A stretch of DNA of 64,000 bases from Candidatus Altiarchaeota archaeon. GTDB lineage: Archaea; Altiarchaeota; Altiarchaeia; IMC4; SCGC-AAA252-I15. A program made the translations under genes and the position numbers. Where the stretch lies: positions 128,001 to 192,000 of the forward strand of contig JAZDNF010000013.1 of NCBI GenBank assembly GCA_043800255.1, in the 5' to 3' direction. Shown here one piece after another: positions 4,968 through 52,321 of the stretch. The notes below the pieces were generated by a model. It worked only from the letters and a program-made list of their open reading frames with translations, searched no databases and had not been told where the DNA came from. Within the stretch, counting starts at the first letter, position 1. Every line of letters begins with the position of its first letter.

Positions 4968-6664
4968 ATAACACCTCCAACATAATAGTTTTCAAACGAT
5001 GTGGGAGTTATTATCTTAAAGGGTTCCATCTTGGCCTTTATTTGGTACTGGTATAGTTTCTGTAAGTCTTCTTCCATCTTCTCCTGCAGCGTTGACTCGG
5101 TTTCCAATCTTGAAACATAATCTCCCTTGTAGAAATGTGCGGATTTCTTCTTGCTTTTGTAGCCATCCATTCCAGCGATATAGATGCTCTTAGCACCCAT
5201 CACAATTGCTAGAGGTATCATCAATATGACAACGGTTGCTGGCTCAGTGTATATCACCCCGCCTTTAATGTCGAAATCATCTTTTGATAGATATTGGATT
5301 GCCTCATAGTCCAGGTTAGGATTCAACTGCTTGACGTGCTCGTGCAGATAACTACCTATCATCAACTTTGAATGCTTGTCGACTGTTGAGATGTATTTTT
5401 TAAATCTCTCGAAGTCGTTGAATATGTGGTACGTCGGTATGAATTTCTTCCCTAGGTAATTAGAGCCGAGGACAATCGGATTTTTCTTTTTGATGAACTC
5501 CTTTATCTTTTCCTCATACTCATTCAATGATGGACCATTTGCGATTATAAGAAAATCCATCCCTTTGTGCCGGTTAACATACGGGGGCTCATCTATAGGG
5601 ACACTGATCTTTATTTTTGACAAATCAACAGGAACATCGGATCGCTTGTCTAAAATCACCGTCTTGTCGATGGCTTTCTGAAGAAGATCCTTGTCAAAAC
5701 CCACGGTAGTCATGTTCTTTAGAGTTGATAGTATTGAGAACACATCTCGCATAGAATATCCCCTTTTCATCAATTCTAAGGAGTATGTTGGGTGGCAGTT
5801 GCTGACGCCTGACAAGAGATAAGGTATGTCATAGCCCCAATGGATATCATATTTTACAATCTTGAGTTCCTTATCAATGAACTCCAGTAGGGGTATCAGA
5901 TCATATCTTTGACTATTAAACTCGTTCAGAAACAATAGGATGGTTTCTATTGGGAGGTTGCCTGCACCCCTTCCCATGCCGTTAATGGATGCATCAATAT
6001 ACTCTGTACCTGCTTCAACGGCAGCTATTGTATTTGCAAATGCTAACTGTAGATTGTTATGTGGGTGAAAGCCAATAACTTTCCCAGTTCCACTCTTGAA
6101 TATTTGAATTAGGTTACTGAGTTCATTTGGTAAAAGAGAGCCAAAACTGTCAGCCAAGTAGATTATGTCAGCGTTTGATGTTCGTATTTTATCAATCGCA
6201 TTTTCGATTTGATTTTGCGTATATTTTGTTATGCCCATTAGATTAAGTGTTACAACATATCCCTCATCAATCAGATCATCTGAGAGTACTATTGCTTCGT
6301 CTAACTCTGGTTGGTAGAAAGCTAACCGGATAATGTCTACTAGTGAGCTGCCTTTTTTTACAAAGTCGTCTTTTTTTATTTTTCCAATATCACCCATAAT
6401 CGAAATCTTTAGGTTTGACTTTTCAGATACTATAGAGTTGATAAACTCCTCAGGTGTGTGTCTCCATATCCCAGTATCCTCCATTACTCCTTTAGTGGTT
6501 CTGTATCCCAACTCCATGATATCTGTTCCAGAATGGGAGATCGCATCATATAGTTTCTTGACGAATGAGTAATCAAATCTCCATTTGTTCAGATGTCCAC
6601 CATCTCGTATAGAACAATCCAATACCTTAACTTTCTTGAATTTTTCGAAAGAATCTGTTTGCAT
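4964..6664 (-). CDS. HMGL-like (DRE-TIM) aldolase fused to a C-terminal DUF115/MAF-flag-like domain
   Basis: LDCSIRDGG, YLADSFG, GFHPHNN, GMGRGAGN; C-terminal IIANGPSL...GAKSIYIAGMDGY. Start placed at MQTDSF. Confidence 0.8.
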   Translation of the reverse strand: MQTDSFEKFKKVKVLDCSIRDGGHLNKWRFDYSFVKKLYDAISHSGTDIMELGYRTTKGVMEDTGIWRHTPEEFINSIVSEKSNLKISIMGDIGKIKKDDFVKKGSSLVDIIRLAFYQPELDEAIVLSDDLIDEGYVVTLNLMGITKYTQNQIENAIDKIRTSNADIIYLADSFGSLLPNELSNLIQIFKSGTGKVIGFHPHNNLQLAFANTIAAVEAGTEYIDASINGMGRGAGNLPIETILLFLNEFNSQRYDLIPLLEFIDKELKIVKYDIHWGYDIPYLLSGVSNCHPTYSLELMKRGYSMRDVFSILSTLKNMTTVGFDKDLLQKAIDKTVILDKRSDVPVDLSKIKISVPIDEPPYVNRHKGMDFLIIANGPSLNEYEEKIKEFIKKKNPIVLGSNYLGKKFIPTYHIFNDFERFKKYISTVDKHSKLMIGSYLHEHVKQLNPNLDYEAIQYLSKDDFDIKGGVIYTEPATVVILMIPLAIVMGAKSIYIAGMDGYKSKKKSAHFYKGDYVSRLETESTLQEKMEEDLQKLYQYQIKAKMEPFKIITPTSFENYYVGGVI

Positions 6665-6781
6665 AATTCTATCAGCTCTTGGGTATATTGTAGATATAGG
6701 TATAAACATAAAAAGTATCTTAAACCTAGCAGTCAACAAAAATGGATTAGTATATCACAATCCACAAATTACAAGTGCTTT

Positions 6782-8296
6782 CTAGTTACTTGAGATAGGT
6801 CGACCAAGTCTAGTCGCTTCTCTCCAGATGTTGACAATCTTCTCTTTTGGGAAATAGGTCAGATAAAACAATCTGATCACAATCATCCATACGATAATAT
6901 ATAGTATGAGTGAAACCCCGCTGTGGAAGAATACGTTCTGAATCTTGCTGGTGTAGGACATATTGACTAAGTATATAATGAAACTGATAGATGGAGGGAG
7001 TAGAATGCGCTGTATAAACCCGATAAATTCTTGCGTATTATAGAACATATAACGTCGAACTGCGTAGAATAGCGTTAGTGCGATAAGTCCTTGTACAGTG
7101 ATAGTTGCCACTGAAACGCCGAGTATTCCATAACCCATTTTGATAACAAGATAATCTAATATCACATTTAGAATCAATCCGGCTATCCAAATCTTGGTAT
7201 TGAGAGTCTGCTTGTTTACAACGGATGATGGGAGTATGACGCCTGGCACACATATAATTGCCATGAAGAAAATGCTGAATGTAAGTATATTAAAAACAGG
7301 TATACTTTCGATGAAGTTAGTTGTTACCAGATGAACTAACAAATAGAAACCTATCTGGCTGATGCCTATAGTCAATGCTGTTGCTATTGACAGATAAACT
7401 GCAATCTTTTGTAACGGTTTGAATCCTTCAATGTGATTTCTCGATTGCCCCAAGCCGGTCCATAGTATCGGCTGTAATACCCCTCCAAATTCAGAGAAAA
7501 ATAGGATAGCGTAGGAGACCATACCCAATGCATAGGAGTAAAGACCCATCTCATGTAGTGGTAGAAAGGCAGCAATCATCGTGCTGTCTGCCATACGATA
7601 ACCCCAATAGGCAATCGTTAACAGCGCCATAGGTATCCCAATTTTCATCAGTTTGACTGTCTCATTCCAGTTTATTTCAAAATGATAATTAATCCCACCT
7701 TTCTGTAGGTAGTATATGAACGCTAATATGGCACCTAATATAGGAGCTAGTAATACTGCGTAAATTTTCAGCCAGAATATTAGTGCTATTGTAACTACCG
7801 GCACGGTGATTCCTTTGATGAGATAGCCAGTTGCTACTTTGTTAAAGTTCTGCCTGGCATGGTTGAAAAGTGACCAGTTATCTGCGTTAGATGATATCAT
7901 ATAGGTCACTGCGGTTAGAATGAGGCCAATCTGGATTATTTTATTGGAATAGAAAAAAGAGGTGCCCAGGATAACAAGGAAGGGTAGAAATGTGTAAAGA
8001 AATTTGCTGGTTATTGAAACGTTTTGTATGTGTAACGCTTTTTCTTTTTCTCCCTTGCCTAACAGGTATGGCACCTCTCTCGAAGCAGCTGACTCTAATC
8101 CAGGGTTTATCAGACCAGCATAGGTAAGCCACAACCCGAGTAAACCGATAATACCGTATTCTTCTGGAACGAGGATCATCGCGACTATAATGCTCTTGGG
8201 TATGGATATGATTTTACAAAAAATGTTTACCGCATTAAATTTAAGAGACTGCCTCAGAACGCTTGATATAGTTACATTGTTTTTTGGTTCCATCAT
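6782..8296 (-). CDS. Oligosaccharide flippase (Wzx/RfbX, MOP family)
   Basis: About 14 hydrophobic segments, ILVPEEYGIIG, D..MIAAFL...MGLYS. Confidence 0.85.
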   Translation of the reverse strand: MMEPKNNVTISSVLRQSLKFNAVNIFCKIISIPKSIIVAMILVPEEYGIIGLLGLWLTYAGLINPGLESAASREVPYLLGKGEKEKALHIQNVSITSKFLYTFLPFLVILGTSFFYSNKIIQIGLILTAVTYMISSNADNWSLFNHARQNFNKVATGYLIKGITVPVVTIALIFWLKIYAVLLAPILGAILAFIYYLQKGGINYHFEINWNETVKLMKIGIPMALLTIAYWGYRMADSTMIAAFLPLHEMGLYSYALGMVSYAILFFSEFGGVLQPILWTGLGQSRNHIEGFKPLQKIAVYLSIATALTIGISQIGFYLLVHLVTTNFIESIPVFNILTFSIFFMAIICVPGVILPSSVVNKQTLNTKIWIAGLILNVILDYLVIKMGYGILGVSVATITVQGLIALTLFYAVRRYMFYNTQEFIGFIQRILLPPSISFIIYLVNMSYTSKIQNVFFHSGVSLILYIIVWMIVIRLFYLTYFPKEKIVNIWREATRLGRPISSN

Positions 8297-8301
8297 TTAT
8301 T

Positions 8302-10260
8302 TTACTCGTTTTTATTTATGATGTCTAGGAGAGCACTAGCCGCCCTGATATCGCTTTTACCGTCATCCAGATGGGTGCCATACATTTTTAAAAATTCTCG
8401 ATTTTTCAAGTCAACATGAGTGTCGAGTTTGCCATCATTCAAAAAGGTGTCTAAAGCCGTTGTGAATTCATTTAGGTTAGGATAACAATATGCGCGACGT
8501 TTTAACAAATCTTCTGCTTCTTTGTCGATATGAAGGTGTCCAGTATATACGAAAATAGGTTTTGTTGTAGTGAGCGCCTGTAGGAGTGTTGTTGAAGGGA
8601 AATCAGTAATTATTATGTCGGATACCGGGAATAGCTCTTGGAATAGGAATTCTGTCCGTATGAACATACAGTTATCATAACCTTGCTTGTCTGCGTATGA
8701 GCGTAGTGGTGTTTCCCGGAACATAAGATTTGGGTGAATTTTTATAAGCGAAAGATAATCTTTTTTCTTTGCAATAAGATCAAGAATTGACGTTTGGGTA
8801 TCCCACAAGCACCTATCGATTAATGGAGGACGCCAAGTCACGTACATATTATTTTGAAGAATGTTTGTTGTAACGTATAGGATAGCTTTCTTGTAATTTT
8901 TTTGCTGTGGATAGTGCCCTAATTCTTTTGAGATGTTTAGGTTCGAGAGTGAGTCCAATGTAGAAGAACCAATAGCCGTGATGACGGTAGCATAATGTTT
9001 AGCAACTTCTTCGTATTTTTTTAGTACTCCCTGCCCATAAACAAAAAGATAGTCTGGAGGTATTACGTCGTAATATACAACCATAGCAGCTTCATGATAC
9101 CCGCAAGAGCCATGCTGCCAACCAATAACCGGTATGCCTAAATTTTGCGATGCTGTTGAAATTGAATTTTCAATGCATGTTGAAAAACTACGGCCAAGAA
9201 CGGCTTGAATTCTTTTCTTCGTTATAGTTTTTACTGCCGTATTATGGACATTTAAGCACAGTGGCGCCAAATCTAGAACTAAAAATTTGAGCCTGTCTTT
9301 GACTATAGGGAAAAAGTTGATGTCATTCCATAAAAAAAATCTGGTAAATTCTGTGTCAGATTCCAATTCGTCCAATACGTTCCCCAAAGCGTGATAATCG
9401 GACGGTTTGAGAAGATTGTTATTAATCCAATATTGTAAATCGTTTTTGATTCTGAAAATCGGGCCTAATCCAGAAGATTGAAGTTGATCTTCAGAAACGT
9501 TCCAATCGTATCCATTTCCGACAATAAGAACTGGCAATTGCGTATCTGCCCCACGATGGCAGCTAAGATTATGTAATGCTAACTTTAGATTTCCTTTTCG
9601 AATGCCCTTAACGAAACTTAAAATACTCGGGTGACTTTCCAAGCAATTTAAAACTCCTTTTTTAATTTCCCTTGATAAGGATATGTTTTTGCGTTCTTCA
9701 AAAGAATTGGTTTTTGACTGATACATGATGCCCAATTTTTCGGTTTTAGTACTCCAATCGGTATCAAGGCCGAGAAGTTTTGAATAAACCGATTCGCAAT
9801 TGTTAAAAAGTAGGTATGGAGCATTTTCAGAAAAACCGAACGGGTATTCCTTAGTACCATAGAAGTAAAGGATATCCGGCGCCTCTCGTTCAATCAATTT
9901 TGATAATTGGAATAATCGCGTTGTTATTGCATCATACACTACCTTGAGGTAATAAAAATTGAAGGATGCAGGTTTTATCCTGAATTTTTTAAAATCTGGG
10001 AGAAAATTTTGAATTTTATTATCGATAATTTTTGAAAACTCTTCAACACGTTGATAATTTTTTAGACCTATTGCGTATAATTCATCTATATCGTAGTAAT
10101 CCTCAAGGGTGCCATAAGGTACCTTATGACTATCTAACTCGTAGACGGCGAATGGAGAAAGTGCTATAATCTCTGGATTACCCTTGAATTTTTCACTATG
10201 GGTTAGATAGTCATTGACTTGTATTTCATCCTCTAGTAATACAATTGATTTTTTATTCAT
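8302..10260 (-). CDS. Putative surface-carbohydrate transferase (GT-B-like, QHG and KxHP motifs)
   Basis: IPVIGWQHG, D.LFVYG, IKIHP, DIIITDFPSTTLLQAL resemble capsule/ulosonate transferase-like families. Confidence 0.55.
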   Translation of the reverse strand: MNKKSIVLLEDEIQVNDYLTHSEKFKGNPEIIALSPFAVYELDSHKVPYGTLEDYYDIDELYAIGLKNYQRVEEFSKIIDNKIQNFLPDFKKFRIKPASFNFYYLKVVYDAITTRLFQLSKLIEREAPDILYFYGTKEYPFGFSENAPYLLFNNCESVYSKLLGLDTDWSTKTEKLGIMYQSKTNSFEERKNISLSREIKKGVLNCLESHPSILSFVKGIRKGNLKLALHNLSCHRGADTQLPVLIVGNGYDWNVSEDQLQSSGLGPIFRIKNDLQYWINNNLLKPSDYHALGNVLDELESDTEFTRFFLWNDINFFPIVKDRLKFLVLDLAPLCLNVHNTAVKTITKKRIQAVLGRSFSTCIENSISTASQNLGIPVIGWQHGSCGYHEAAMVVYYDVIPPDYLFVYGQGVLKKYEEVAKHYATVITAIGSSTLDSLSNLNISKELGHYPQQKNYKKAILYVTTNILQNNMYVTWRPPLIDRCLWDTQTSILDLIAKKKDYLSLIKIHPNLMFRETPLRSYADKQGYDNCMFIRTEFLFQELFPVSDIIITDFPSTTLLQALTTTKPIFVYTGHLHIDKEAEDLLKRRAYCYPNLNEFTTALDTFLNDGKLDTHVDLKNREFLKMYGTHLDDGKSDIRAASALLDIINKNE

Positions 10261-10417
10261 AGATACTTTACCACTCCATTTTAATCTGGTAATCTCCTAT
10301 AACTTAGGATTAATTCGTTTGCCATCTTTGCTATATAGGGGCAAAATTGAGGCCTAATATCCCACAAATTAAATGTCAACGTGAGGGATAACCCAAAGAG
10401 GCATTAGGTAATAAGCT

Positions 10418-11935
10418 TTATTGCATTTTAAGGATGCTCCTAGCTACACGTCTTATTGCTTTAGGTATGCTCGTTTTTATCCAATCCGGAATTGTGTTTC
10501 CTAGGTAGACGTAGAGCGCATATATGTAATAAGTCTTAGGTTTTGTCTTCTTATGGTAATATAATTTTAATTCTTCTCTCATAATTTGACCCCAATGCCG
10601 CCATACTTTGTCAGGCTCCTTTGTCAGATTAATTAAAGGTGCCCCCCCATGCTCAGCAACGAAATCGAGATATTCTTCAACATCTTGGACAAGTTTATTT
10701 TCTTCAACATATCGCCAAATAGGGGTCTCGGGTAGAGGAACCAGGTAGTTCAAAGAGAATTTATATGCGTCAACATCTTTTAAGAATTGGATTGTTTCAT
10801 AGATTGTTTCTGTCGTTTCTTTTGGGGATCCTATGACCAACTGTACGCAACACGCCATTCCCAAGTCTAATGTCAACTTGGTTATTCTCCTGTTTTGCTG
10901 GGAGCTTATACCTTTTCTATACTCTCTCAAGATTGTGTCTGAACCGGATTCCTGGCCGTAATCGACTTCAATACATCCAGTTTCTTTCAGCCGGATAAGC
11001 ATTCTCTCGTCAACCTTATCCGCTCTTGCACCAGGTACTACATAGAAAATATCAAGATTGTTCTTTTCTATCGCATCACACAATTCCATAACCCAACCAT
11101 AATCTGAATTAAACAATTCGTCATAGAAATAAAATCCACTGACCCCATATTTTTCCTTGATATATTTTATGTGGTTAGTCACATAATCCACACTATGTCT
11201 CCTGACTCCCCGGACATGCCTATAACAAAAAAGGCATCTGTTGGTACAGCCTGAAGACGTAGGAATCTCAATGTAGTGTGTTCTCGACCCCACCCGCGCT
11301 CTTGCATTGGAAATAATCGAATCACTAAGGAGTAAATCTTCATACATTTCAAGCCGATTCTTTACTGGGGACAGATACCGAGATACATCAATGAGCTGGT
11401 ATGCAGGAAATGGAATTTCGTCTAAATCTTTTATTTGCTCGGCAGGATCGTTTCTTACAGCCCTCCCATCTAGGGGATAGGATAGTCCAAGTATGTCATA
11501 TATCGTTTCCTTTTTTTCAAATCTCCTCAAAAATATAGGGAGGCTGACATCTGCTTCGCCATGGAAGACCACATCTACTTTGGTTTTTGTAAGCAATAAT
11601 TCATAAACGGATGCAAGAGCCCCACCGGCAATTTGCACAATTTTGGGGTATTTGCTCTTTATATGTAAAGATAATTGTTTGGTTCTCCCATAGGATGTTG
11701 CAATACCCCCGTAACCTATGATGGAAGGTTTATAATCTTCTATAATTTTATCAATTTTATCAAAGAAGTGGCCATTATCAAACTCTCGGAGTTCAATATC
11801 ATCCAAGTAGGGGTCTATTATTCTCGCTTGGTGACCGCATCTTTCGATTATTGATCCCACATATAATAAACCCCAAGGCACTCCAAACCCCGCAATTCCT
11901 CTGCGGGAGGGCACGTTTATCAGTAATATGTTCAT
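10418..11935 (-). CDS. Cobalamin-binding radical SAM protein
   Basis: PWGLLYVG, IAGGAL, GCTNRCLFC, DELF, GQESGS, IGSPKET; GAGGT RBS before ATG 11935. Confidence 0.9.
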   Translation of the reverse strand: MNILLINVPSRRGIAGFGVPWGLLYVGSIIERCGHQARIIDPYLDDIELREFDNGHFFDKIDKIIEDYKPSIIGYGGIATSYGRTKQLSLHIKSKYPKIVQIAGGALASVYELLLTKTKVDVVFHGEADVSLPIFLRRFEKKETIYDILGLSYPLDGRAVRNDPAEQIKDLDEIPFPAYQLIDVSRYLSPVKNRLEMYEDLLLSDSIISNARARVGSRTHYIEIPTSSGCTNRCLFCYRHVRGVRRHSVDYVTNHIKYIKEKYGVSGFYFYDELFNSDYGWVMELCDAIEKNNLDIFYVVPGARADKVDERMLIRLKETGCIEVDYGQESGSDTILREYRKGISSQQNRRITKLTLDLGMACCVQLVIGSPKETTETIYETIQFLKDVDAYKFSLNYLVPLPETPIWRYVEENKLVQDVEEYLDFVAEHGGAPLINLTKEPDKVWRHWGQIMREELKLYYHKKTKPKTYYIYALYVYLGNTIPDWIKTSIPKAIRRVARSILKMQ

Positions 11936-11978
11936 AGAATTACCTCTGCAGGCTATCATTTACTTTGGAGTATCTCAA

Positions 11979-13037
11979 TTATTTGTGGTCTATCCTGTCC
12001 CAGAATATGACTTCATCCTCGTTAATATCCTTTCTTGTCTTTTTGCCTACAAGATCATTTAAAAATTTTGGCTCGATGCCAGTTCCAGGTCTTTTAATGA
12101 CGATCATTTTTTGGGTTATCTTTGTTCCTTTTGGTATGAACAGTTTTGCCACTAGGCTCCTTCTTGCAAATTTTCGTGCTTTATTCTCTGATTTTGTAGG
12201 TTTTTTTGTTTTGATCCCCATTGCCTTTTCTAAGACTCTGAAGCTATTTACAATATTTCTCAAATCCTCATAATCCGCCGATATCTCATGGTCATAGCCG
12301 GGTCTACTTTTATCAAAAGTGAAATGTTTTTCAATTACCTTAACGCCCATTGCAACAGCAGCAGTTAGTACATAGAGACTTTCAGGCATTTTAGTATGGT
12401 CAGAATATCCGACGGTATGTTGTGGAAATTTCTCAATTATATCCCTTATCATGTTTAGGTTTACATCCTCGATTTTTGTCGGATAGTTGGTGGTACAGTG
12501 TAGTAGGATAATCTGACCATTACCCTCAGACTCAATAATCTCGACAGCCTCCCGTATCTCATCGATTGTTGATGCTCCAGTGGAGAGGATTATCGGTTTC
12601 TTCTTTTTTGCTATATGCCTTATGAGAGGATGATGTGTTATGTCCATGGAACTAATCTTGTAGATGGAAACTCCAAGCTTCTCCAGCATATCTGCCGATT
12701 CCTCATCCGCAGGCGTCGAGAATAACACTATACCTGCATCATCCGCAACCTGCTTCAACTCCTGATACTGATTGAAACTAAGCTGTGGCATCTCATTGAA
12801 CTCTTCATACTGAGTCTCTCCAGGGCATCCTTCTATATCCCAGAACTTCGGCGCATCCCTTGTTACGAGCTTGTCAGGGACAAATGTCTGGAATTTTACA
12901 GCATCTGCACCCGCCAGAGCAGCCTCTTTTACCATTTCCTTTGCACGCTCAAAATCATTTTCAAAGTTGCATCCTATTTCGGCAATGACAAAAACAGAAG
13001 CTCTGCCAGTAATATCTTTAAGTAGATTATTTTGCAT
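11979..13037 (-). CDS. neuB: NeuB-family nonulosonic acid synthase (PseI/LegI/SpsE-like) with C-terminal SAF domain
   Basis: VIAEIGCN, GADAVKFQT, KISS.D, LHCTTNYP, GYSDHT, IEKHFT, RRSLVA, KRPGTGI. Confidence 0.9.
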   Translation of the reverse strand: MQNNLLKDITGRASVFVIAEIGCNFENDFERAKEMVKEAALAGADAVKFQTFVPDKLVTRDAPKFWDIEGCPGETQYEEFNEMPQLSFNQYQELKQVADDAGIVLFSTPADEESADMLEKLGVSIYKISSMDITHHPLIRHIAKKKKPIILSTGASTIDEIREAVEIIESEGNGQIILLHCTTNYPTKIEDVNLNMIRDIIEKFPQHTVGYSDHTKMPESLYVLTAAVAMGVKVIEKHFTFDKSRPGYDHEISADYEDLRNIVNSFRVLEKAMGIKTKKPTKSENKARKFARRSLVAKLFIPKGTKITQKMIVIKRPGTGIEPKFLNDLVGKKTRKDINEDEVIFWDRIDHK

Positions 13038-43448: not shown

Positions 43449-43549
43449 AAAGGATAAAAAATGCGATTTGAGGTATAAATTGAACGCCAGAAAAGGTATT
43501 TTTAATGCTGTATTCCCTATTTTGTTTTATTTTGTGGGGTGGTATTGGG

Positions 43550-45100
43550 ATGAAAAAGGTTGGGATATTCTTTGTTCTTGTTTTGTTGGAAGTAAATTTG
43601 GTTTCCGCTGCAGTGACTGGAGACGACCCGTTCCTTAGCACTGGAACGGAATTTCTCGCCATAAGATGGGACGACAACCACAAATACAAATACGGGCCAT
43701 ACTACTACCACCATCCGATGATAATGCCGCTCTTCAACAGCACGAACATTTACGTCGACGCCAACGATGACGGCGTCTGGGAGTACAAGCACACGAAAAA
43801 CGCCGGCGAGTGGCTGAGCTTCGAAGTCCTTCCCCTCCCGGGGCTGATCAACCCCGGGGCTAGAATACACTCAGACAAGCCGGTAATCTACAAACAATAC
43901 CTCAGGATGTACAGCCACAGCTGCGGCTGGGCTTGCGCATATTACGTAGACAGTGAATCCATAGTCCCGCCGCTGAACAGCCTGCGAAACGAATACTTCA
44001 TATACAATGGGGAGTGGACTATCGTCCCACAACAGAGCATAACTGTCAACGTGGACATGGGCAACGACGGAACAGTGGATAACACAATCAGCGCCCCCAA
44101 ACTCATCAAGACTCTGGTTACAATCCCCACCGGCAGTTTCGCGAGAGTCTACTCCAATGGCTCATTCTACCTGTACAACACAATCGGGGTTGTAGGGCCA
44201 GCATCTTCCGACTTTTACATCCAAGATGAGAACGTATCAAAGCTCGTGGTGACAGAAGACGATACGCTGGTGGAAATAGACTTTAACAACGATGGACACT
44301 ATGACAACAGCTCAAATTACAGCAGGGGAGTCTACGGCCTGCTCCAGTTGAACAACGGAGCGCATCTGCACTCGAACAAGCCTGTGACAGTTTACGTCTA
44401 CGAGGGAGAATACGCCCTACCCAGCACCATGATAGGCAGCGACGTGTGGAGCACAGGCCACAATTACGTTGTAGGATTGTTCGACAACACAACATTCCAC
44501 GCCGACGATCTACTGGAAAACAACCTCGCTCCGGAATTGGACGACACAGTAGACGCCAACGTGGAGAAACCGTCAGCAGGCCCGTTCCAGAACAACCAAA
44601 AACACGTCTGGTCTGACAAGCCGCTCATATCAAAGTACTATTACAGGGACGAGGCGCACATCCTCGGCCCATACTCTGCGATTTCCACAGCAACGCACGG
44701 ATTGCAGAAGTACTTGGGCGCGGAGGAGATAACAACAATTGAGACGCGTGTTTTCAACCCCTTCGCGGACACGACAGCATACAATCTCACGCTGAACTTC
44801 AGAATCCCGCCCGGATTCACACTGCCTTTGGGGAACTCTCTCGAGGTTTCAATCCAGAAAAAGGTTCTGATGAACGACAGCATAACAGAGAGTGAAACGG
44901 TCACCGTCAACCCGACATACTCCGCGGGCGAGTACATCGTCACACTCTCACGCTCAGACTCTGCCATCTTAGGAACTCTTGAGCCGATGGCCTATTTGAA
45001 CGTCCAGTATCAGGTTGTGACACCATCAGCCTACGGAACATTCGAGTTCGATTCCGTGATTTTAGGCTATGAGGCTGAAACCTGGAACATGCCGGAATAA
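43550..45100 (+). CDS. Secreted protein with four IgGFc-binding-like repeats and a C-terminal Ig-like domain
   Basis: Signal peptide MKKVGIFFVLVLL; repeated D.N.DG...GA...S(D/N)KP units. Confidence 0.6.
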   Translation: MKKVGIFFVLVLLEVNLVSAAVTGDDPFLSTGTEFLAIRWDDNHKYKYGPYYYHHPMIMPLFNSTNIYVDANDDGVWEYKHTKNAGEWLSFEVLPLPGLINPGARIHSDKPVIYKQYLRMYSHSCGWACAYYVDSESIVPPLNSLRNEYFIYNGEWTIVPQQSITVNVDMGNDGTVDNTISAPKLIKTLVTIPTGSFARVYSNGSFYLYNTIGVVGPASSDFYIQDENVSKLVVTEDDTLVEIDFNNDGHYDNSSNYSRGVYGLLQLNNGAHLHSNKPVTVYVYEGEYALPSTMIGSDVWSTGHNYVVGLFDNTTFHADDLLENNLAPELDDTVDANVEKPSAGPFQNNQKHVWSDKPLISKYYYRDEAHILGPYSAISTATHGLQKYLGAEEITTIETRVFNPFADTTAYNLTLNFRIPPGFTLPLGNSLEVSIQKKVLMNDSITESETVTVNPTYSAGEYIVTLSRSDSAILGTLEPMAYLNVQYQVVTPSAYGTFEFDSVILGYEAETWNMPE

Positions 45101-45104
45101 CAGA

Positions 45105-47267
45105 ATGAGAAGGCATTCTATCCTCGCCCTGCTTGTGTTGGCAGCAGTCGCAGTCAGCCAGCCGGCTAACGTCAGCCTCCAGCCTGCCTTAGAGGTTGGA
45201 CCGCACCAGGCATATTCCGCCCCCTTCGGACTTCCAACCTTCGATCCGATGAATCCTCTCTCAATCCTCACGACGCCGCATTCCCTCCTCTCTGCATCCT
45301 TCTCGCAGATTGCGTTCTTGAGACTGAGCAGCCTATCCTCCAGCTCCGAAGGGCACGCAACAGAATCCTCTGACGCCACGATAAAAACAGCACCATACTA
45401 TGACTGCAACACACTCAACAACGGCATAATATCAGAGAACACAACACTGGACGCTGACTTCAACTCCAACGGAACCTGCTTCACCCTCTCAGCGGACAAC
45501 GTAACTTTAGACTGCAACAACCACACAGTCTACGGCTTAGGGAATGCGGGAATTCTTGTGAACAACAGAGACTACGTCAGCATCAGAAACTGCAACCTGG
45601 TCGGGTTCGACTACGGAGTCTACATCCTGAACTCCGATTATGCAAATGTCCAGGACAATATAATCCATGCTAACCTGTTTGACGTCTACTTCAACAACTC
45701 AAACCATTACACCCTCTCAGGCAACATAGCCTGCTTCGTCTACGGCAACTCCTCGGGGAACGGATGCGATGTCTCCTTAGAGTTCACAGGGCCGTTCGAA
45801 TACAACGTCACCAGAGAGTTTGTGTCCCTCAGAGTCGGTGTCAAAAACACCGGCAACTACCAAGCCTCTGCGTACGCAGACCTGGATCCGATAATCGATA
45901 TCCCAATATCGTTCATAGGAGCAGGCGAAAAGTCCAATCCCGTGCCAGTCGGCGTGGGCGAGACCCGCAACTTCACAATAGGCTTGACCCTCTCAGACGC
46001 CCAAGAACTTAACTACTCGTTCCCCATCCGCATCCACTGGCGTGGCCTCACCATGGACTCCAAAACAGTCTCAATCAACCTCCCCTCCTGGGACAGGTAC
46101 AATCTCACAATCAGCCTCGGAGAAGCTGCCGAAACCTTCAGCATCGCATCCTCAACTCAACCATTACTGTGGAACATCAGCATGCCCGACATCTCGAACG
46201 CGTCGAGCATCTGCATGAACTCGAAACAGACTGTGACAGTCACAAACACCGGCCTCGAACCGGTCTCAGACCTCAGCGTCCAGACCGTTGGAAACCTGAA
46301 CCTCTACTTAGACAAGAGGGTCGAAAGTTTCAGGCTGGAACCGGGGCAGTCCATATCCTTTAATGCCTACGCGATAGTAGACAATGAGACACCTCAAGTG
46401 AATGGGGGCGTGGAGGTATCAGGCGCCAGACTAGAGAGGAACGTGCAAGTAGACTATAATCCACCAGCCGGCGGCGGAGAGTGGGCCCAGTGCAGGAACA
46501 TATCAACAGACAGTTATGTGACAATACCAGTCCACCAGTTCGTGTGCGTGAACAAACCAACCTTCTGCGTTACCATAGCACTGCCGTCCGACCTCGACCT
46601 GGACAGCATCAGCGAAGCGAGGATGAGGATGGGCTTCAGCAGCTCCTGCGGGGGAATCCAAGAGCATGACATGGACGTCTCATTGAACGGCGTTATAGTC
46701 CAGAGCTGGGAGGACAGCGTCCAGACCGGAGAATACGATTTCCCATTCTCCGCGGAACTTTTAGACTACGATAACCAGGTATGCGGCGTCACATGGGACT
46801 ACCAGGGGAGAGGCCACTGGTGCGCCAACGTGTACACGAGCATAACCGTCAGACTGCGAACTTATAGAACCTACTGTGAGGACAAAACCTGCAACAAAAC
46901 CGAAGACCATGAGACCGTCTTCAACGACGACCTTGACAGCGACTGCGACGGCTTCAAAGACTGCCAAGACCTGGACAGCTGCGGCAGCCCCCAATGCCCG
47001 CAAAACCTCTGGTGCCAGACCGAGGACTGCGACAACGGCTTAGACGACGATGGCAACGGACTAGTAGACTGGGAAGACACCATAAGCTGCCCCGGAAACT
47101 GCAACGACACCATACAAAACAGAGACGAAGAAGCCCCAGACTGCGGAGGACGATGCCCCCCATGCTGGACCATAACAACCACAACAACCACAACCACGAC
47201 AACAACAATACCCCAACCCAACCTCAAAATAACACCACAAGACATAACAATAAAGGTGAAACAATGA
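45105..47267 (+). CDS. Secreted modular surface protein (parallel beta-helix, Ig-like domains, Cys/Asp-rich repeats, Thr linker, terminal CARDB A-strand)
   Basis: Signal peptide; NVTLDCN...GI....V.IRNC beta-helix; DSDCDG..DC.D; CNDTIQNRDEEAPDCGG.CPPC; T11; PNLKITPQDITI. Confidence 0.75.
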   Translation: MRRHSILALLVLAAVAVSQPANVSLQPALEVGPHQAYSAPFGLPTFDPMNPLSILTTPHSLLSASFSQIAFLRLSSLSSSSEGHATESSDATIKTAPYYDCNTLNNGIISENTTLDADFNSNGTCFTLSADNVTLDCNNHTVYGLGNAGILVNNRDYVSIRNCNLVGFDYGVYILNSDYANVQDNIIHANLFDVYFNNSNHYTLSGNIACFVYGNSSGNGCDVSLEFTGPFEYNVTREFVSLRVGVKNTGNYQASAYADLDPIIDIPISFIGAGEKSNPVPVGVGETRNFTIGLTLSDAQELNYSFPIRIHWRGLTMDSKTVSINLPSWDRYNLTISLGEAAETFSIASSTQPLLWNISMPDISNASSICMNSKQTVTVTNTGLEPVSDLSVQTVGNLNLYLDKRVESFRLEPGQSISFNAYAIVDNETPQVNGGVEVSGARLERNVQVDYNPPAGGGEWAQCRNISTDSYVTIPVHQFVCVNKPTFCVTIALPSDLDLDSISEARMRMGFSSSCGGIQEHDMDVSLNGVIVQSWEDSVQTGEYDFPFSAELLDYDNQVCGVTWDYQGRGHWCANVYTSITVRLRTYRTYCEDKTCNKTEDHETVFNDDLDSDCDGFKDCQDLDSCGSPQCPQNLWCQTEDCDNGLDDDGNGLVDWEDTISCPGNCNDTIQNRDEEAPDCGGRCPPCWTITTTTTTTTTTTIPQPNLKITPQDITIKVKQ
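47175..47207 (+). repeat. ACN codon run encoding an 11-Thr linker
   Basis: ACAACCACAACAACCACAACCACGACAACAACA. Confidence 0.9.
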
Positions 47268-47545
47268 ACAAACAAAAAACAACAAAAAGGGAATGGACGA
47301 TAATAGGTGCTCTGATAGGGGGAGTGTGGGGGCTGACAAACTTCTTCACATACCCTATCAATAGCAATAATCTAGTACTAGATTACACCTTTGGATTTCC
47401 TATAAGAGCATCGGCGGTAATAAGGAGGATGACAAGTATCCATCCTGATTCAATTTTATCTCTTTTTATTATACCCGCAGTCGTTGGTATTGTTGTTGGA
47501 GTAGGTATAGGGTCAATTTTTCAAAGATTTTATCGAAATGAATAG
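47264..47545 (+). CDS. Small two-TM membrane protein (93 aa)
   Basis: ATGA overlap with the upstream stop, AGGTGA RBS at 47254-59, two Gly-rich hydrophobic helices. Confidence 0.7.
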   Translation: MNKQKTTKREWTIIGALIGGVWGLTNFFTYPINSNNLVLDYTFGFPIRASAVIRRMTSIHPDSILSLFIIPAVVGIVVGVGIGSIFQRFYRNE

Positions 47546-49985
47546 GACATTAAAAGATAACTATTGGAGTAGGACGCGTAGAGGATTGTTTAGAACTAAA
47601 CTTATGACATTAATCGTAGTTATTTCTATTTGTCCACTACTCTCCACATCTGAGTGGTACGAAGGAGATCTCCATATACATACAGGCTATAGTAGTAGAG
47701 AAGGTTACGATAAGAATCTCCAGACTGAAGGAGATAACTGCCCAAAGGAACTAATAACGGACCAAGGATATACTCTTCAAGAATTAGAATCTCATAGCAA
47801 AGGTGTAGGACTCGATTGGATTACTGTGACAGATCATAGTTATTGCTTGGATGAATCTGAATGGGAAACCCTAAAATCCGAGTGTTCTGGACTTATTGAT
47901 TCAGATTTCTTGTGCATTATTGGTCAAGAAGTTTCCGTAAAAGAGGATTGTACATCAAATGACTATGAAGGTGCATGTACCAGAGAATCTCTGTTTACTC
48001 CAAAGGGTGTAAGCCATCTGGGTGTTAGAGGTCATTCACAATTTATACAAACATCACCACCTAATGTTTGGTGTCCTGACAGCCCAGGACAACAAGAGAC
48101 GATAAATTCGGTTAATTCAAGGGGAGGCGTAACCATCATAAACCATCCAAGCCACATCCAATACGACTGGGAAAGTAGCTCTTGTACTTCAGGCGAGACG
48201 GGAGTTGAGATATGGAACGGGGATACACCAGAACAGGATGACATCGAGTTCTGGAAATCCAGATTACTTCAAGGAGACCACCCATATGGATTTGGAGGTA
48301 CTGATTCCCATGACGAACTGAACACAAAAGTATACACATCGTGTTATATGTTTTCTTTGTCGGAGTCTAATCTCCTATCGGCTTTGCATGGGGGGCGTTG
48401 TTTTGTTTCGAATTCTCATGAGGTTGAGACGAAACTTTTTAAGAACAAGGATTACACTGGGATGATGGGAGACACTGTGACTGCAAATTCTTATGATGAA
48501 CTGGATTTTGACACTTACTGGACTCTGAAAGAGAATCCGACAACACCTAGACTCAGCATCTACGCCGGAAAAATAGGTGACTCCCACGAGGATATGATAT
48601 ACTACAAACTCTTAACCGGAAGTTCGTCTGGGGGAGTTGGTCTTCCAATCTCACCAGATGATATGACATACTATAGAGTAGAAATCCGCTCAATCGACCG
48701 CAAAAACACATTCTCCAATCCAATATGGGTTGAAATTGAAGACATAAACCCGGGAAAAACGCTGGAGATTTCCGCCACCGTCCATAATGTTGGTGATACT
48801 GATGCGTCGGATTTTGAGGTTAGGATACTGGATAACGCTGATGTGATTTACACTACTACGGTACCGTATCTGGCGGCTAACAGTTCCACCACTGTGAGCA
48901 CAACGTGGACTGCAGAGTTGGGAGTGCACAACTTCCACGTGCAACTGGATAATCCGAACACTATAGCGGAATCGGACGAGTCGGACAACAGCGCCTTCAA
49001 AACCGTGACAGTCACGGAGACAGGGATAACAGTCAACCCCACCGGGAGGGCGTCGGCGGAAGTCACATACACCGAACCGGTTGAAGTGCAAATACAAGAG
49101 GTAAACGACCCAGGAGACACAGAGTATAGCATCGACAGATTCATAGAGTATACTGCCAACACAAGCTTCGAAGAAGCCACCATAAGGATAAACTACTCTG
49201 AAGAGGGGCTAGATGTGGACGAACGAACCCTGAGGATACACTACTGGAATGAAACTACCGACGAGTGGCAGCAGATAACCCGGAGCGGAGTCAACACGGA
49301 TGATGATTACGTGTGGGCTGACGTAAACCACTTCTCGATTTACACAGCAATAGGGGAGAAAATGCCAGAGCTGACGGTGAACCTCAGCGGAGACAACCAA
49401 ACCGTGCCAGACAAGATGCTTCAGATAAAGACACAGATAGAAAATACAGGAGATGAAAACGCCAGCAACTTCACAATAGAATACTACGACCTCTACAACA
49501 ACACAAATGTCAGCAAGATAATGGAAACCACTATAAACAACCTAACACAACAAGAGCACATAATCCTAACCTTGAACTGGAACGACAACCGCACAGGAAA
49601 CCACACCATATTCACGATAGTTGACAGCTTGGACGAGATAGAAGAAGTCGACGAATCGAACAACATCGGAATCCTTGAGGTCGAAATCCTAGACGATGAA
49701 GATAACGATTATGTTGCAGACATATACGACGAGTGTAATGGGACGGTGCTGCCTGAGGATATTGACCTACTACCTAACCACTACGCAGATGTTGACGGAG
49801 ACCGCACACTAGAAACAAACACCGGCAACAACAAAAAACCACAGATAGCTAACAGCAACATAACACTAACAGACACCCGCGGATGCACATGCACACAAAT
49901 ACTCAAGCAAAAACCCGGAAAAGACAACGGAGAACTCAGACACGGGTGCACGAAAGGGACGACAGACAACTGGATCAGACCATAA
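47538..49985 (+). CDS. Secreted PHP-type (CehA/McbA-like) metallohydrolase with CARDB domains, an HFS-motif domain and a TSP3-like Cys-rich tail
   Basis: GDLHIHT, TDHS, GQE, NHP, EIWNG, GTDSH, SNPIWV; two V.N.G...E.DE.(D/N)N CARDB units; VNHFS; DDEDND...DEC. Confidence 0.8.
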   Translation: MNRTLKDNYWSRTRRGLFRTKLMTLIVVISICPLLSTSEWYEGDLHIHTGYSSREGYDKNLQTEGDNCPKELITDQGYTLQELESHSKGVGLDWITVTDHSYCLDESEWETLKSECSGLIDSDFLCIIGQEVSVKEDCTSNDYEGACTRESLFTPKGVSHLGVRGHSQFIQTSPPNVWCPDSPGQQETINSVNSRGGVTIINHPSHIQYDWESSSCTSGETGVEIWNGDTPEQDDIEFWKSRLLQGDHPYGFGGTDSHDELNTKVYTSCYMFSLSESNLLSALHGGRCFVSNSHEVETKLFKNKDYTGMMGDTVTANSYDELDFDTYWTLKENPTTPRLSIYAGKIGDSHEDMIYYKLLTGSSSGGVGLPISPDDMTYYRVEIRSIDRKNTFSNPIWVEIEDINPGKTLEISATVHNVGDTDASDFEVRILDNADVIYTTTVPYLAANSSTTVSTTWTAELGVHNFHVQLDNPNTIAESDESDNSAFKTVTVTETGITVNPTGRASAEVTYTEPVEVQIQEVNDPGDTEYSIDRFIEYTANTSFEEATIRINYSEEGLDVDERTLRIHYWNETTDEWQQITRSGVNTDDDYVWADVNHFSIYTAIGEKMPELTVNLSGDNQTVPDKMLQIKTQIENTGDENASNFTIEYYDLYNNTNVSKIMETTINNLTQQEHIILTLNWNDNRTGNHTIFTIVDSLDEIEEVDESNNIGILEVEILDDEDNDYVADIYDECNGTVLPEDIDLLPNHYADVDGDRTLETNTGNNKKPQIANSNITLTDTRGCTCTQILKQKPGKDNGELRHGCTKGTTDNWIRP

Positions 49986-50021: not shown

Positions 50022-50402
50022 CTAACTTTTTTTCTCTATTATATTCTCGACCGCGTCTATGAATTTCCCCAAATTATCAACCAAATCCCTAACTTCAATC
50101 TCATCCACATCCATTATAACCTGATAATCGCTTTTATCCCTCATGTTAGCGGCACGAGTCAGAATTTTTCCATATGTTTTATCTAACAAACCTTCCTTCA
50201 CCACACACTCCCCAAATTTCCCGATAGCGCCAGCATGCGATTTCGTATCAACACCCAGACTCGTTAACAACGCCTTAGCTGCATGAAAAACAGAGTAATA
50301 AGCGCGGTTCGCAGCAGACCGAAACCTGTTCTGTTCTACCAAAAGGCGCGCATCATTCGCAAACTCACGCGAAAGCTTCAACTCCTCTCGGACTATTTCC
50401 AT
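50022..50402 (-). CDS. HEPN domain protein (MNT-HEPN pair)
   Basis: AANRAYYSVFHAAKALL, KSH.G, R..SDY. Confidence 0.88.
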   Translation of the reverse strand: MEIVREELKLSREFANDARLLVEQNRFRSAANRAYYSVFHAAKALLTSLGVDTKSHAGAIGKFGECVVKEGLLDKTYGKILTRAANMRDKSDYQVIMDVDEIEVRDLVDNLGKFIDAVENIIEKKS

Positions 50403-50724
50403 ACAACAGAACCCCCTTCGACAATACTTCCCTCATAAAAGAGGAGCCCGCCCTAACCTCCTCCCGCACTTCATTAGGAGAGTCGAAAAGAACAGACAAT
50501 GCAACACCATACTCCGCATTAACATCCGTCTGAATATCAAGAATAGTATTATAAACCCGCTTAGAACTGGATATTATCAGAACATCCACATCACTCTCGC
50601 CCTGCCTATACTCGCCACGCGCAGCCGAACCATATAGTAAAATCTGATCAATATGTCCTCCAACCCTGTCAGTAACACGACCAACAAAATCGTCCAACGC
50701 TCGCTTATAACCCAATGCCGCCAT
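50365..50724 (-). CDS. Minimal nucleotidyltransferase (MNT)
   Basis: LYGSAARG.....SDVDVL, C-terminal F..EV...G..LY. Start MAALG at 50724. Confidence 0.88.
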   Translation of the reverse strand: MAALGYKRALDDFVGRVTDRVGGHIDQILLYGSAARGEYRQGESDVDVLIISSSKRVYNTILDIQTDVNAEYGVALSVLFDSPNEVREEVRAGSSFMREVLSKGVLLYGNSPRGVEAFA

Positions 50725-50874
50725 AACAATAATATAATCAACAGAAACATTAAAATAGAGGGAAAAACACGATAACGCCACAAATGAGGGATAACACCAA
50801 CAACCTGGCAAAAGAGAAGACAGTCCACACACCATGCTGCTGATTTTTATACCGCGGTTTTGAATATTAAAGGG

Positions 50875-51361: not shown

Positions 51362-52321
51362 ATGGAAATCACAATCGTCGGAGGCTCAGGCTACACCGGC
51401 AGAGAGCTCATCCGGCTGCTGGAAAAACACCCCAACGCAGGGAAGATAACCGTGACCTCAACACAATACAGCGGGAAAAAGGTCAAAGAACTGCACCCCA
51501 CCCTCCAGACTAACCTGGAATTCGAAGAACTCAACTACGGTAAGGCCAATGAGACTGATATGGTCTTCTGCTGCACACCCCACACCAAGACGCTGGACAT
51601 CGTCGCCCAGCTTACGACGAAGGTGATAGACTTGAGCGCAGACTACCGGCTCAAAAACCCGGGAGAATATGAAAAATACTACGGAGTCAAGCACACTCAC
51701 CCTGAGCTGCTGAAGGACACAGTGTACGGGCTGCCTGAACTCCACAGGAAGGAGATAAAAAAAGCGCGGGTTATCGCAAACCCAGGATGCTTTCCCACAG
51801 CGATAATATTGGGATTGAAGCCGCTCATGGAGTTGAAACCTGAGAAGATTGCTGTGGACGCGAAGACAGGATACAGCGGCGCAGGCAAGAAATCAGAGGA
51901 GACGGAGTATCAGGCGAAACTGAAGGACAATATCATACCCTACAAGGCCGTAGGACACCAGCACACCCCAGAACTGGAGCAGGAGCTTGGAATGAAGGTC
52001 GGATTCACGCCCCACCTGCTTCCGGTAGAGCGGGGGATACTAGCCACATTCCACGTGTACGCTGAGGCCGGAGCGGAGAGGATGAAAGAGCTATTGGAGA
52101 AACAGTACAAGAAGGAGCCGTTCATAAAGCTGGTGGAGACGCCCAGCCTCCAGACTGTCAACAACACCAACTACTGCGAGATAGGCGGGCTCCGGGAGGA
52201 CGGCACAGGCAGGAAAGTCTTCTTCTCGGCGATAGACAACCTCATAAAAGGAGCCTCCGGGCAGGCTGTGCAGAACATGAACATCATGCTCGGATACGAG
52301 GAGACCCTGGGACTAAAGTAG
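51362..52321 (+). CDS. argC: N-acetyl-gamma-glutamyl-phosphate reductase (ArgC/LysY family)
   Basis: GGSGYTG.EL.RLL..HP, DLSADYR, YGLPE, ANPGCFPT, DNLIKGASGQAVQNMN. Confidence 0.9.
   Translation: MEITIVGGSGYTGRELIRLLEKHPNAGKITVTSTQYSGKKVKELHPTLQTNLEFEELNYGKANETDMVFCCTPHTKTLDIVAQLTTKVIDLSADYRLKNPGEYEKYYGVKHTHPELLKDTVYGLPELHRKEIKKARVIANPGCFPTAIILGLKPLMELKPEKIAVDAKTGYSGAGKKSEETEYQAKLKDNIIPYKAVGHQHTPELEQELGMKVGFTPHLLPVERGILATFHVYAEAGAERMKELLEKQYKKEPFIKLVETPSLQTVNNTNYCEIGGLREDGTGRKVFFSAIDNLIKGASGQAVQNMNIMLGYEETLGLK

Follow-up and report, generated by a model that had tools for sequence, protein, structure and literature searches.

The window analysed here is a 64,000-nucleotide stretch of DNA from a Candidatus Altiarchaeota archaeon (contig JAZDNF010000013.1, positions 128,001 to 192,000). 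It contains a locus in which one immunoglobulin-like (Ig-like) domain of the CARDB family appears to be split between two secreted proteins: the predicted first strand of the domain forms the C-terminal tail of one protein, and the remaining strands belong to the stalk of a putative phosphoesterase encoded downstream. We propose that variable secreted proteins dock onto the phosphoesterase stalk by trans strand complementation, as a split-CARDB pair, and we hold this proposal to be about evenly balanced between right and wrong. Four genes lie head to tail on the + strand of the locus: gene 1, gene 2 (the proposed donor of the strand), a 93-residue open reading frame (ORF) and an 815-residue gene (the proposed acceptor). 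The features of the acceptor gene, in coordinates of the window, are the following.

47538..49985, + strand: proposed acceptor gene, 815 residues (793 residues as annotated; protein P0001)
47655..48734, + strand: head, CehA/McbA-family (PHP-type) predicted metallohydrolase with a C-terminal beta-sandwich, residues 40-399, ending SNPIWVE
48735..49028, + strand: CARDB1, proposed acceptor socket, about residues 400-497, without the canonical N-terminal strand in cis
49029..49364, + strand: middle domain, about residues 498-609, with the signature TLRIHYWNE...YVWADVNHFSIYTAIG
49365..49673, + strand: CARDB2, complete, about residues 610-712, beginning PELTVN
49692..49976, + strand: Cys-containing C-terminal domain, about residues 719-813, without a hydrophobic anchor

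The acceptor protein is composed of a signal/anchor segment, the metallohydrolase head, CARDB1, the middle domain, CARDB2 and the Cys-containing C-terminal domain, in this order. The head matches the NF038032 profile with 104.1 bits (cut-off 80) over residues 40-399, and the match takes up positions 2-315 of the 315-position profile. An AlphaFold model of residues 24-511 (predicted local distance difference test score, pLDDT, 74.3) retrieved the PHP-like phosphoesterases 3e38 (the best match, E 1.7e-8) and 2anu (E 2.9e-7) in a Foldseek search, and a Pfam search of the acceptor gave no PHP match at E ≤ 0.1. Alignment A1 contains the N-terminal motif GDLHIHT and conserved TDHS and HP motifs. With the curated cut-off passed and a PHP-like fold, the head belongs to the CehA/McbA family and is predicted to be a metal-dependent hydrolase. 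Its last strand is the conserved motif [NT]P[IV]W[VFI], present in the acceptor as SNPIWV at residues 393-398. The protein P0004 stops right after the equivalent head-end motif, TPIWFN, and others continue into varied domains.

CARDB1 starts where the head ends. The acceptor matches the Pfam family PF07705 with 97.5 bits (cut-off 22.7) in two stretches, and its two domains scored 65.1 bits and 48.4 bits in a genome-wide CARDB search. CARDB2, which begins with PELTVN at residue 610, covers profile positions 2-97 and is complete, as the initial annotation of the window had stated. CARDB1, matched over residues 401-485, covers profile positions 13-98 of 101 (12-98 in the genome-wide search); it is an incomplete CARDB domain, in which profile positions 1-11 are missing in cis. 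In an AlphaFold model of residues 290-505 (pLDDT 77.9), the segment WVEIED (residues 396-401) forms the last strand of the head sandwich, and Ig-like templates align to model residues 2-114, which are the head sandwich. A VIA alignment of CARDB1 with the CARDB structure 2l0d (Z 11.0, root-mean-square deviation 3.0, 96 residues) spans model residues 113-208 (protein residues 402-497) and residues 14-113 of the 2l0d chain; phmmer aligned residue 16 of 2l0d with N404 of the acceptor. The G strand is modelled at acceptor residues 485-492. The end of the head profile, the start of the Pfam match and the structural alignment are three kinds of evidence, drawn from sequence profiles and models, by which CARDB1 is predicted to be without a first strand of its own. 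The initial annotation had claimed that the first CARDB of the downstream ORF lacks this strand and starts directly after the end motif of the head, and both claims are borne out by the Pfam start at position 12-13, the NF038032 match reaching residue 399, and the model with its structural alignment. The middle domain that follows CARDB1 is 41-52% identical to the same domain in three related genomes (G001, G026 and G012), has invariant columns in alignment A2 and is also found in other large proteins of the genome of the window. The C-terminal domain is 45% identical to the C-terminus of a 687-residue frame in the genome G028, and the last 120 residues of the acceptor contain no hydrophobic window.

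The features of the proposed donor and of the ORF that separates it from the acceptor gene are the following.

45105..47267, + strand: gene 2, proposed donor (protein P0011), 720 residues as annotated, 732 residues counted from 45069
47175..47207, + strand: 11 consecutive Thr codons, linker, read directly from the sequence
47208..47264, + strand: C-terminal tail IPQPNLKITPQDITIKVKQ, proposed donor strand (CARDB strand A in trans)
47217-47252, + strand: strand-like part PNLKITPQDITI of the tail, read directly from the sequence
47264..47545, + strand: small membrane-protein ORF, 93 residues, from the ORF listing and hydrophobicity

The protein encoded by gene 2 has a signal-peptide-like N-terminus with a hydrophobic segment at residues 5-25 and a weak NosD/beta-helix region (NosD 18.5 bits, below cut-off). 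These are followed by a middle region common to the proteins P0013-P0017, Cys-rich repeats, the Thr linker and the tail, so that the protein ends CGGRCPPCWTI, 11 Thr, IPQPNLKITPQDITIKVKQ and the stop codon. The initial annotation had correctly placed PNLKITPQDITI behind an 11-Thr linker; the end that it quoted was four residues short, as KVKQ follows. It had also noticed that the last codons of gene 2 double as an AGGTGA ribosome-binding site and an ATGA overlap, and both are present at 47253-47267: AAGGTGA occupies 47253-47259, within the last codons, and in the ATGA at 47264-47267 the stop codon of gene 2 overlaps the start of the 93-residue ORF. The latter shares 8 nucleotides with the acceptor gene (47538-49985).

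The tail of gene 2 is related to the first strand of CARDB domains. The closest relative of gene 2 identified by an exhaustive HMMER search is P0013, with 41% identity over query residues 34-661, which carries two complete CARDBs after the same Cys-rich region. The P0013 cluster has five members, encoded on contigs that differ in length, and all of them end in VLLPDWWTTESNITFIILRGEE (short form LLPDWWTTESNITFIILRGEE) followed by the stop codon, and this ending parallels the start of the second CARDB of P0013, LPDFYLNSSLITY. Another relative, P0015, has two CARDBs followed by lamin-tail domains and is without the P0013-like ending. The cis CARDBs of both P0013 and P0015 match the Pfam CARDB profile from position 2. 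Because P0013 continues into CARDBs and its ending mirrors a CARDB start, the tail of gene 2 is, on sequence comparison, a CARDB first strand by descent, and by the same comparison a terminal orphan strand recurs in the gene-2 family at a different position.

In archaeal sorting signals of the PGF-CTERM type, a transmembrane helix and then a basic tail come after a C-terminal motif. No 19-residue window is hydrophobic in the last 80 residues of gene 2 or the last 120 of the acceptor, and neither protein carries such a signal. Proteins of relatives with the same CGG.C..C motif and Thr linker end in a hydrophobic helix and a basic tail. The longer motif C.DG..N..E.G.DCGG.C..C with a Thr/Ser-rich linker is common in the order (L022-L026: G031, G005, G033; C5:34397-34537(-) in the genome of the window) and is normally followed by the hydrophobic helix and basic tail, as a stalk with a membrane anchor. 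Gene 2 is unusual in having a strand-like tail in place of the membrane anchor.

The initial annotation had suggested folding the tail together with CARDB1. We co-folded acceptor residues 290-505, which include the acceptor's own residues preceding CARDB1, with the last 41 residues of the donor (692-732, counted from 45069) in ESMFold2 without alignments. Three runs gave a score of 0.62, as against 0.00 for the best of three controls, and shared at least 96% of their contacts; the pLDDT of the partner was 64 or higher. For comparison, 51 of 78 solved complexes and 2 of 108 mismatched pairs attain the mark set for such co-folds. In the predicted complex, tail residues 719-728 run antiparallel to acceptor residues 409-417, which form strand B, and the tail contacts acceptor residues 403, 407-423, 466-472 and 482-490. 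The tail thus lies where strand A of an Ig-like sandwich sits, and it docks there although the acceptor's preceding residues are present in the calculation. The docking geometry is a prediction, and as such it supports the structural logic of a split domain.

The arrangement of genes recurs in relatives. A CARDB-middle-CARDB stalk joined directly to an enzyme head was found in six loci, located in the genome of the window (G000), four related genomes (G001, G011, G012 and G026) and one metagenome contig (L048). The heads are as follows.

G000: PHP-type metallohydrolase (NF038032)
G026: PHP-type sandwich of another subgroup, with the junction YTNPIWVTPKTLKVGDT and the same spacing
G001: phosphodiesterase-like, by similarity to G011 and G012 rather than by Pfam
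G011 and G012: type I phosphodiesterase (PF01663)
L048: type I phosphodiesterase (PF01663)

The heads come from two families. The head sandwiches of G000 and G026 score 19 bits against each other and 40-45 bits against others, and represent different subgroups; the spacing of the head-CARDB junction (NPIWV, 7 residues and G) is nevertheless the same in both. In G012 and L048, the CARDB profile match begins at position 16-17. All four loci with readable upstream DNA contain a gene for a secreted-looking protein, a small membrane ORF and the head-stalk gene, which is the kind of recurrence that the initial annotation had set as a check. The small ORFs in these loci mostly overlap the start or stop codons of their neighbours. 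The upstream DNA of the other two loci is unreadable, because the G001 locus begins at a contig end and that of G026 is cut by a DDE_3 transposase. The proteins encoded upstream end in the following tails, each followed by the stop codon.

G000: PNLKITPQDITIKVKQ
G012: NPDLVAKNANIIFFRIR (short form GNPDLVAKNANIIFFRIR), with an ATGA overlap
G011: SNLKINWRSIQVRNLG (short form KKSNLKINWRSIQVRNLG)
L048: KPKLQYERFVV, of which only these 11 residues are visible

The donors of G000, G012 and G011 have no mutual BLASTP similarity at E ≤ 0.1. The domain boundaries, the gene order, its recurrence and the variation of heads and upstream proteins between loci are observations; judged from the sequences, the tail is the only part that the donors share.

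A metagenome scan with the stalk alignment kept 80 loci, 13 of which were examined. The strand-less junction is present in one of the 13 (L048). The CARDBs of L049, L053 and L078 have their own first strand, L051 starts in the middle of a domain, and the other eight share the middle domain only. G023 and L051 are cut by contig ends, and a match in G044 was set aside as a strand-less case because it has its own strand A. Word-index protein searches returned 10 matches for the whole acceptor, two for residues 250-732 of gene 2 and two for stalk residues 399-716, with no gene that fuses the donor to the stalk among them; the searches were restricted to 0.55-1.75 times the query length, and this result is not evidence of absence. 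In G026, a DDE_3 transposase gene with helix-turn-helix domains (L021 7175-8227(-), 130.6 bits) occupies the place where the 5' part of the acceptor should be, and the acceptor remnant is an open frame without head and without start. An argC-like gene lies near the acceptor both in G026 and in the window (51362-52321), which hints at a shared neighbourhood of the two loci. In G012 (L042), 529 residues of the donor (5466-7172) align with the C-terminal part of the acceptor (10042-12684) at 27% identity (E 4e-36), indicating a large paralogous module common to both genes.

Based on the domain boundaries, the co-fold and the related loci, a mechanism of docking can be proposed. A conserved operon of Altiarchaeota-like archaea would encode a two-part non-covalent docking device derived from one split CARDB. 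The acceptor would be a secreted or membrane-tethered phosphoesterase, whose head, of the CehA/McbA PHP type here and a type I phosphodiesterase in relatives, is carried on the CARDB-middle-CARDB stalk. CARDB1 would follow the last strand of the head without a gap and begin with the A-B loop, which would leave strand B with a free edge. The secreted protein encoded upstream would be the donor, with a flexible linker (11 Thr here) and the short strand PNLKITPQDITI at its end. After export, the donor strand may bind antiparallel to strand B and complete the sandwich, so that the donor is held where the head of the enzyme meets its stalk. In the four readable loci, a gene for a small membrane protein separates the donor and acceptor genes, and its product is a candidate anchor or assembly factor. 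The modular system of C-terminal strands envisaged in the initial annotation stands in its domain boundaries, co-fold and recurrence, which passed the tests set for them; the binding remains a prediction. We infer from these results that donor and acceptor bind in the cell, and what the binding is for.

Several observations weigh against this proposal. The four loci with readable upstream DNA are kin, three of them in one family, and are therefore not independent. In the phosphodiesterase-type acceptors, the head is separated from the A-B loop by 13-16 residues, such as KPLFDFSDCMKYVPG, which could form a short strand A in cis. A second pair of a tail and a strand-less CARDB was not found in G000, where the other CARDBs examined have their own strand A. 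The monomer of CARDB1 is modelled confidently without the donor (pLDDT 84-93, strands B-F). The halves of a split domain may pass the co-fold from the predictor's memory of intact CARDBs, and what the co-fold shows is a likeness of the tail to strand A and an open slot, with docking as a prediction. The similarity among the tails is no better than moderate. In an ungapped BLOSUM62 comparison with a background of 2226 C-termini of G000 ORFs, the tails of G000 and G011 score 24, which is reached by 12-14 of the background C-termini, and those of G012 and P0013 score 27, reached by 3; eight of the ten tail pairs are at background level, and the visible part of the L048 tail resembles no other tail. 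A position matrix made from 52 canonical strand-A 12-mers and run on 2227 G000 C-termini ranks the tails weakly: 176 C-termini score at least as high as the G000 tail, 36 as that of G012, 137 as that of P0013 and 1878 as that of G011. The stricter motif given in the initial annotation, searched as a Thr/Ser linker followed by P(N/D)LxIxxxDI, occurs in one of 4453 G000 ORFs, gene 2 alone, and among the tails compared it fits that of G000 only. A looser tail motif, present in 5 of 2227 ORFs, was defined after the tails had been seen.

We regard it as unlikely that the tail is functional but has another partner, such as the membrane protein encoded next to it, a domain within the donor, or some machinery for sorting or attachment that is specific to the lineage. 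CARDB1 would then be an N-terminally shortened Ig domain packed against the head, in line with its confident model as a monomer. The position of the small membrane ORF between donor and acceptor in all four readable loci is consistent with this alternative, as is the use of C-terminal peptide motifs on secreted proteins in G000, where 20 ORFs end in GWNL[ILV]S.PL. However, the co-fold places the tail in the strand-A slot with a score far above that of the best control, and the tail is without a hydrophobic anchor segment. The small membrane ORF of the window has a strong hydrophobic segment at residues 59-88 and a weaker glycine-rich segment near 12-29, recognised by eye; a search of 48 other genomes of the order at E ≤ 0.01 gave no homologue of it apart from one 16.5-bit match. 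Small membrane ORFs lie upstream of the head genes in G012, G011, L048, G048, G027 and G015. The small ORFs between donor and acceptor have no detectable mutual similarity, and that of G048 is weakly similar to the one in the window (E 0.025 in a single comparison). In G048, G027 and G015, the small ORFs precede PHP-type heads whose next domain has its own first strand. Since the small ORFs also accompany heads with a complete next domain, they track the enzyme rather than the tail, and the small ORF seems to travel with the enzyme head.

Across the order, genes of secreted PHP-type (CehA/McbA-like) enzymes are usually preceded by a small membrane ORF of about 90-180 codons, as in three of four other loci examined (L136 3768-4046 in G048; L137, reverse strand, in G027; the end of L016 in G015). 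Going by gene order, the small ORF and the PHP-type enzyme gene look like a conserved gene pair, and a unit of small ORF and head may have been exchanged between conserved flanks. The reading frame of the small ORF in the window is open from 46994, because the sequence is A/C-rich and thus poor in stop codons. A programmed frameshift from gene 2 into the small ORF was considered and set aside because of this composition and a 64-nucleotide gap in L048.

It is likewise improbable that the tail is a vestige. According to this explanation, donors once ran into CARDBs and were cut by a unit of membrane ORF and enzyme, the leftover strand has no function, and the co-fold reflects only the origin of the tail, a result that a split domain would be expected to give. 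The continuation of P0013 and P0015 from the same Cys-rich region into complete CARDBs fits such a history, and so does the sharp change of composition at 47158-47246, close to the end of gene 2. However, a strand-like tail also marks the end of the unrelated donors of G012 and G011, with overlapping or adjacent start and stop codons, and in the P0013 family a terminal tail of this kind comes behind two CARDBs that are intact. With stalks that are 27-38% identical, an unselected remnant of 12-16 residues should have decayed or disappeared. The composition pattern, moreover, recurs in all four loci. In the window, the G+C content of 47248-48747 is 0.403, compared with 0.532 in gene 2 and 0.50 in the genome, and corresponds to the 5th percentile of 1.5-kilobase windows. 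The G+C content at third codon positions (GC3) is 0.67 in gene 2, 0.31 in the small ORF, 0.36 in the head part and 0.57 in the CARDB part. The AT skew drops from about +0.4 to +0.58 down to about 0 to +0.2 in the segment, which confirms that the intervening DNA is richer in T than its flanks. G012, G011 and L048 repeat this gradient in G+C and GC3, with the donor higher, the small ORF lowest, the 5' part of the head low and the stalk rising. Because the gradient recurs in relatives, the low G+C content is not evidence of a single recent insertion.

Such an insertion, of a 1500-base-pair in-frame cassette that split one CARDB of an ancestral giant gene and whose exact removal would restore this gene, was the other explanation offered in the initial annotation, and the observations behind it were read correctly: the 9-mer AAGACATAA occurs at 47239-47247 and 48739-48747, exactly 1500 base pairs apart and in frame, the two large ORFs share a reading frame, and the interval is low in G+C. 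An in-frame shared 9-mer was found in 293 of 20000 similarly placed random window pairs of the genome (1.5%), the chance of a shared reading frame is one in three, and the repeat and shared frame are best read as chance. We consider the insertion highly improbable, since the in-frame repeat is absent from G012, G011 and L048, which have out-of-frame 7-mers or nothing, the donor and acceptor genes of G012 are in different frames, the right boundary of the composition change is diffuse (best at 48120, support interval 48063-48885) and not at 48747, G026 has the same junction and spacing on a head of a different subgroup, orthologous stalks, middle domain included, are joined to other heads, and a domain restored in this way would span 26 residues (P to N.G), compared with 29-33 in the complete CARDBs seen here (our own count).

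The locus is preceded by one further gene.

43505..45100, + strand: gene 1, 531 residues, with an N-terminal hydrophobic segment, from the ORF listing

Gene 1 overlaps the start of gene 2 when the latter is counted from 45069, and the two genes probably belong to one operon. Profile searches assigned gene 1 to no family above cut-off. In G039 (L029), a homologue of gene 1 is located directly upstream of a homologue of gene 2. Directly behind the acceptor gene, a gene for a HEPN domain protein (50022-50402(-), 57.9 bits) overlaps a nucleotidyltransferase gene (50365-50835(-), Polbeta / NTP_transf_2), and the two form a typical HEPN-MNT toxin-antitoxin-like pair. The G+C content is 0.34-0.46 in positions 1-33000 of the window and 0.45-0.57 in the remainder to 64000, around the genome value of 0.50. 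The first 33 kilobases could be a large island of foreign composition or the result of an assembly join.

A second type of protein ending was observed in G000 outside the locus. Twenty ORFs of at least 100 residues end in GWN[LIM][ILV]..P, mostly GWNLISIPL, followed by 1-3 residues and without a hydrophobic helix after it; these terminal cases are 20 of the 24 occurrences of the motif in the genome. Examples are C16:1667-6808(-), C7:340850-342643(+) and C15:1996-6258(-), and none is inside the locus. The motif comes after several different domain types. In the C16 protein and in proteins of G023 and G014, it is the first strand of a domain of about 80-110 residues that ends G.GY[FWY]. The GWN ending may serve as a C-terminal signal particular to the lineage or as a further orphan-strand tag, and a literature search found no work on GWNLIS. 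We speculate, and think it distinctly doubtful, that Altiarchaeota-like archaea assemble much of their surface proteome by portable C-terminal strand tags that fit strand-deficient beta-sandwich sockets on other proteins. The split CARDB, with exchangeable enzymes and cargo, would be one such pair, and the GWNL[ILV]S.PL endings of 20 large secreted proteins would be a second and much larger class.

If the proposed docking is real, the split of a common Ig-like domain has produced a natural, genetically encoded tag and socket. Never-cultured archaea known for elaborate surface structures would use it to attach unrelated secreted proteins to an extracellular phosphoesterase, and strand complementation would extend from the polymerisation of pili to the heterodimeric docking of an enzyme and its cargo. 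The pair would also provide a testable rule for recognising, in metagenomic data, C-terminal strands without a domain and Ig domains that look 'truncated' at the N-terminus, which annotation pipelines now treat as ordinary domain hits, and could yield a small non-covalent module for protein coupling. Even if no docking takes place, the locus is a record of enzyme heads exchanged on a conserved CARDB stalk.

Donor-strand complementation itself is known from pili. As far as the literature was searched, the new elements are the identity of the missing strand, the end of the donor that supplies it, the heterodimeric use for an enzyme and its cargo, and the archaeal operon. The search found no work linking CARDB with donor-strand complementation and nothing relevant on split Ig-like strand complementation in archaea; the available part of the 2015 hami paper contains no mention of CARDB. 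Archaeal bundling pili and tat-fimbriae are described as filaments held together by donor strands (PMC9245690, PMC11821415). By that description, they are alike in that archaea build surface structures by strand complementation, and differ in being filaments of repeating subunits. Both CARDBs of the acceptor match the family PF07705, which includes the solved structures 2l0d, 2kl6 and 3idu, and CARDB1 differs from its canonical members in lacking profile positions 1-11 in cis.

In chaperone-usher pili, the G strand at the C-terminus is lacking from an Ig-like subunit and is supplied by an identical or similar pilin, the next in the fibre, through an extension of its N-terminus. The split CARDB resembles them in that an Ig-like domain without an edge strand would receive it from another polypeptide, with a stable non-covalent link predicted. 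In contrast, the N-terminal A strand is missing here, the G strand of the acceptor is modelled, the strand would come from the C-terminus of an unrelated protein, a heterodimer rather than a fibre is predicted, and the host is an archaeon. The PapD-like chaperone (PF00345) and usher (PF00577) profiles have no matches in G000, which is 93% complete, and controls match in E. coli. SpyTag/SpyCatcher is an engineered pair, in which a terminal strand of an Ig-like domain serves as a portable tag that forms a covalent isopeptide bond. The terminal strand of an Ig-like domain would likewise act here as a tag captured by the rest of the domain elsewhere, but the split is natural, and no covalent chemistry is indicated. 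Subunits of the type V pili found in Bacteroidia lose their N-terminal strand to a protease once they have been exported as lipoproteins, and they polymerise; the groove vacated in one subunit receives the C-terminal strand of its neighbour. These pili are the closest match to the split CARDB in topology, with the difference that the strand is here absent from the gene itself, and the two partners are unrelated proteins, one of which is an enzyme.

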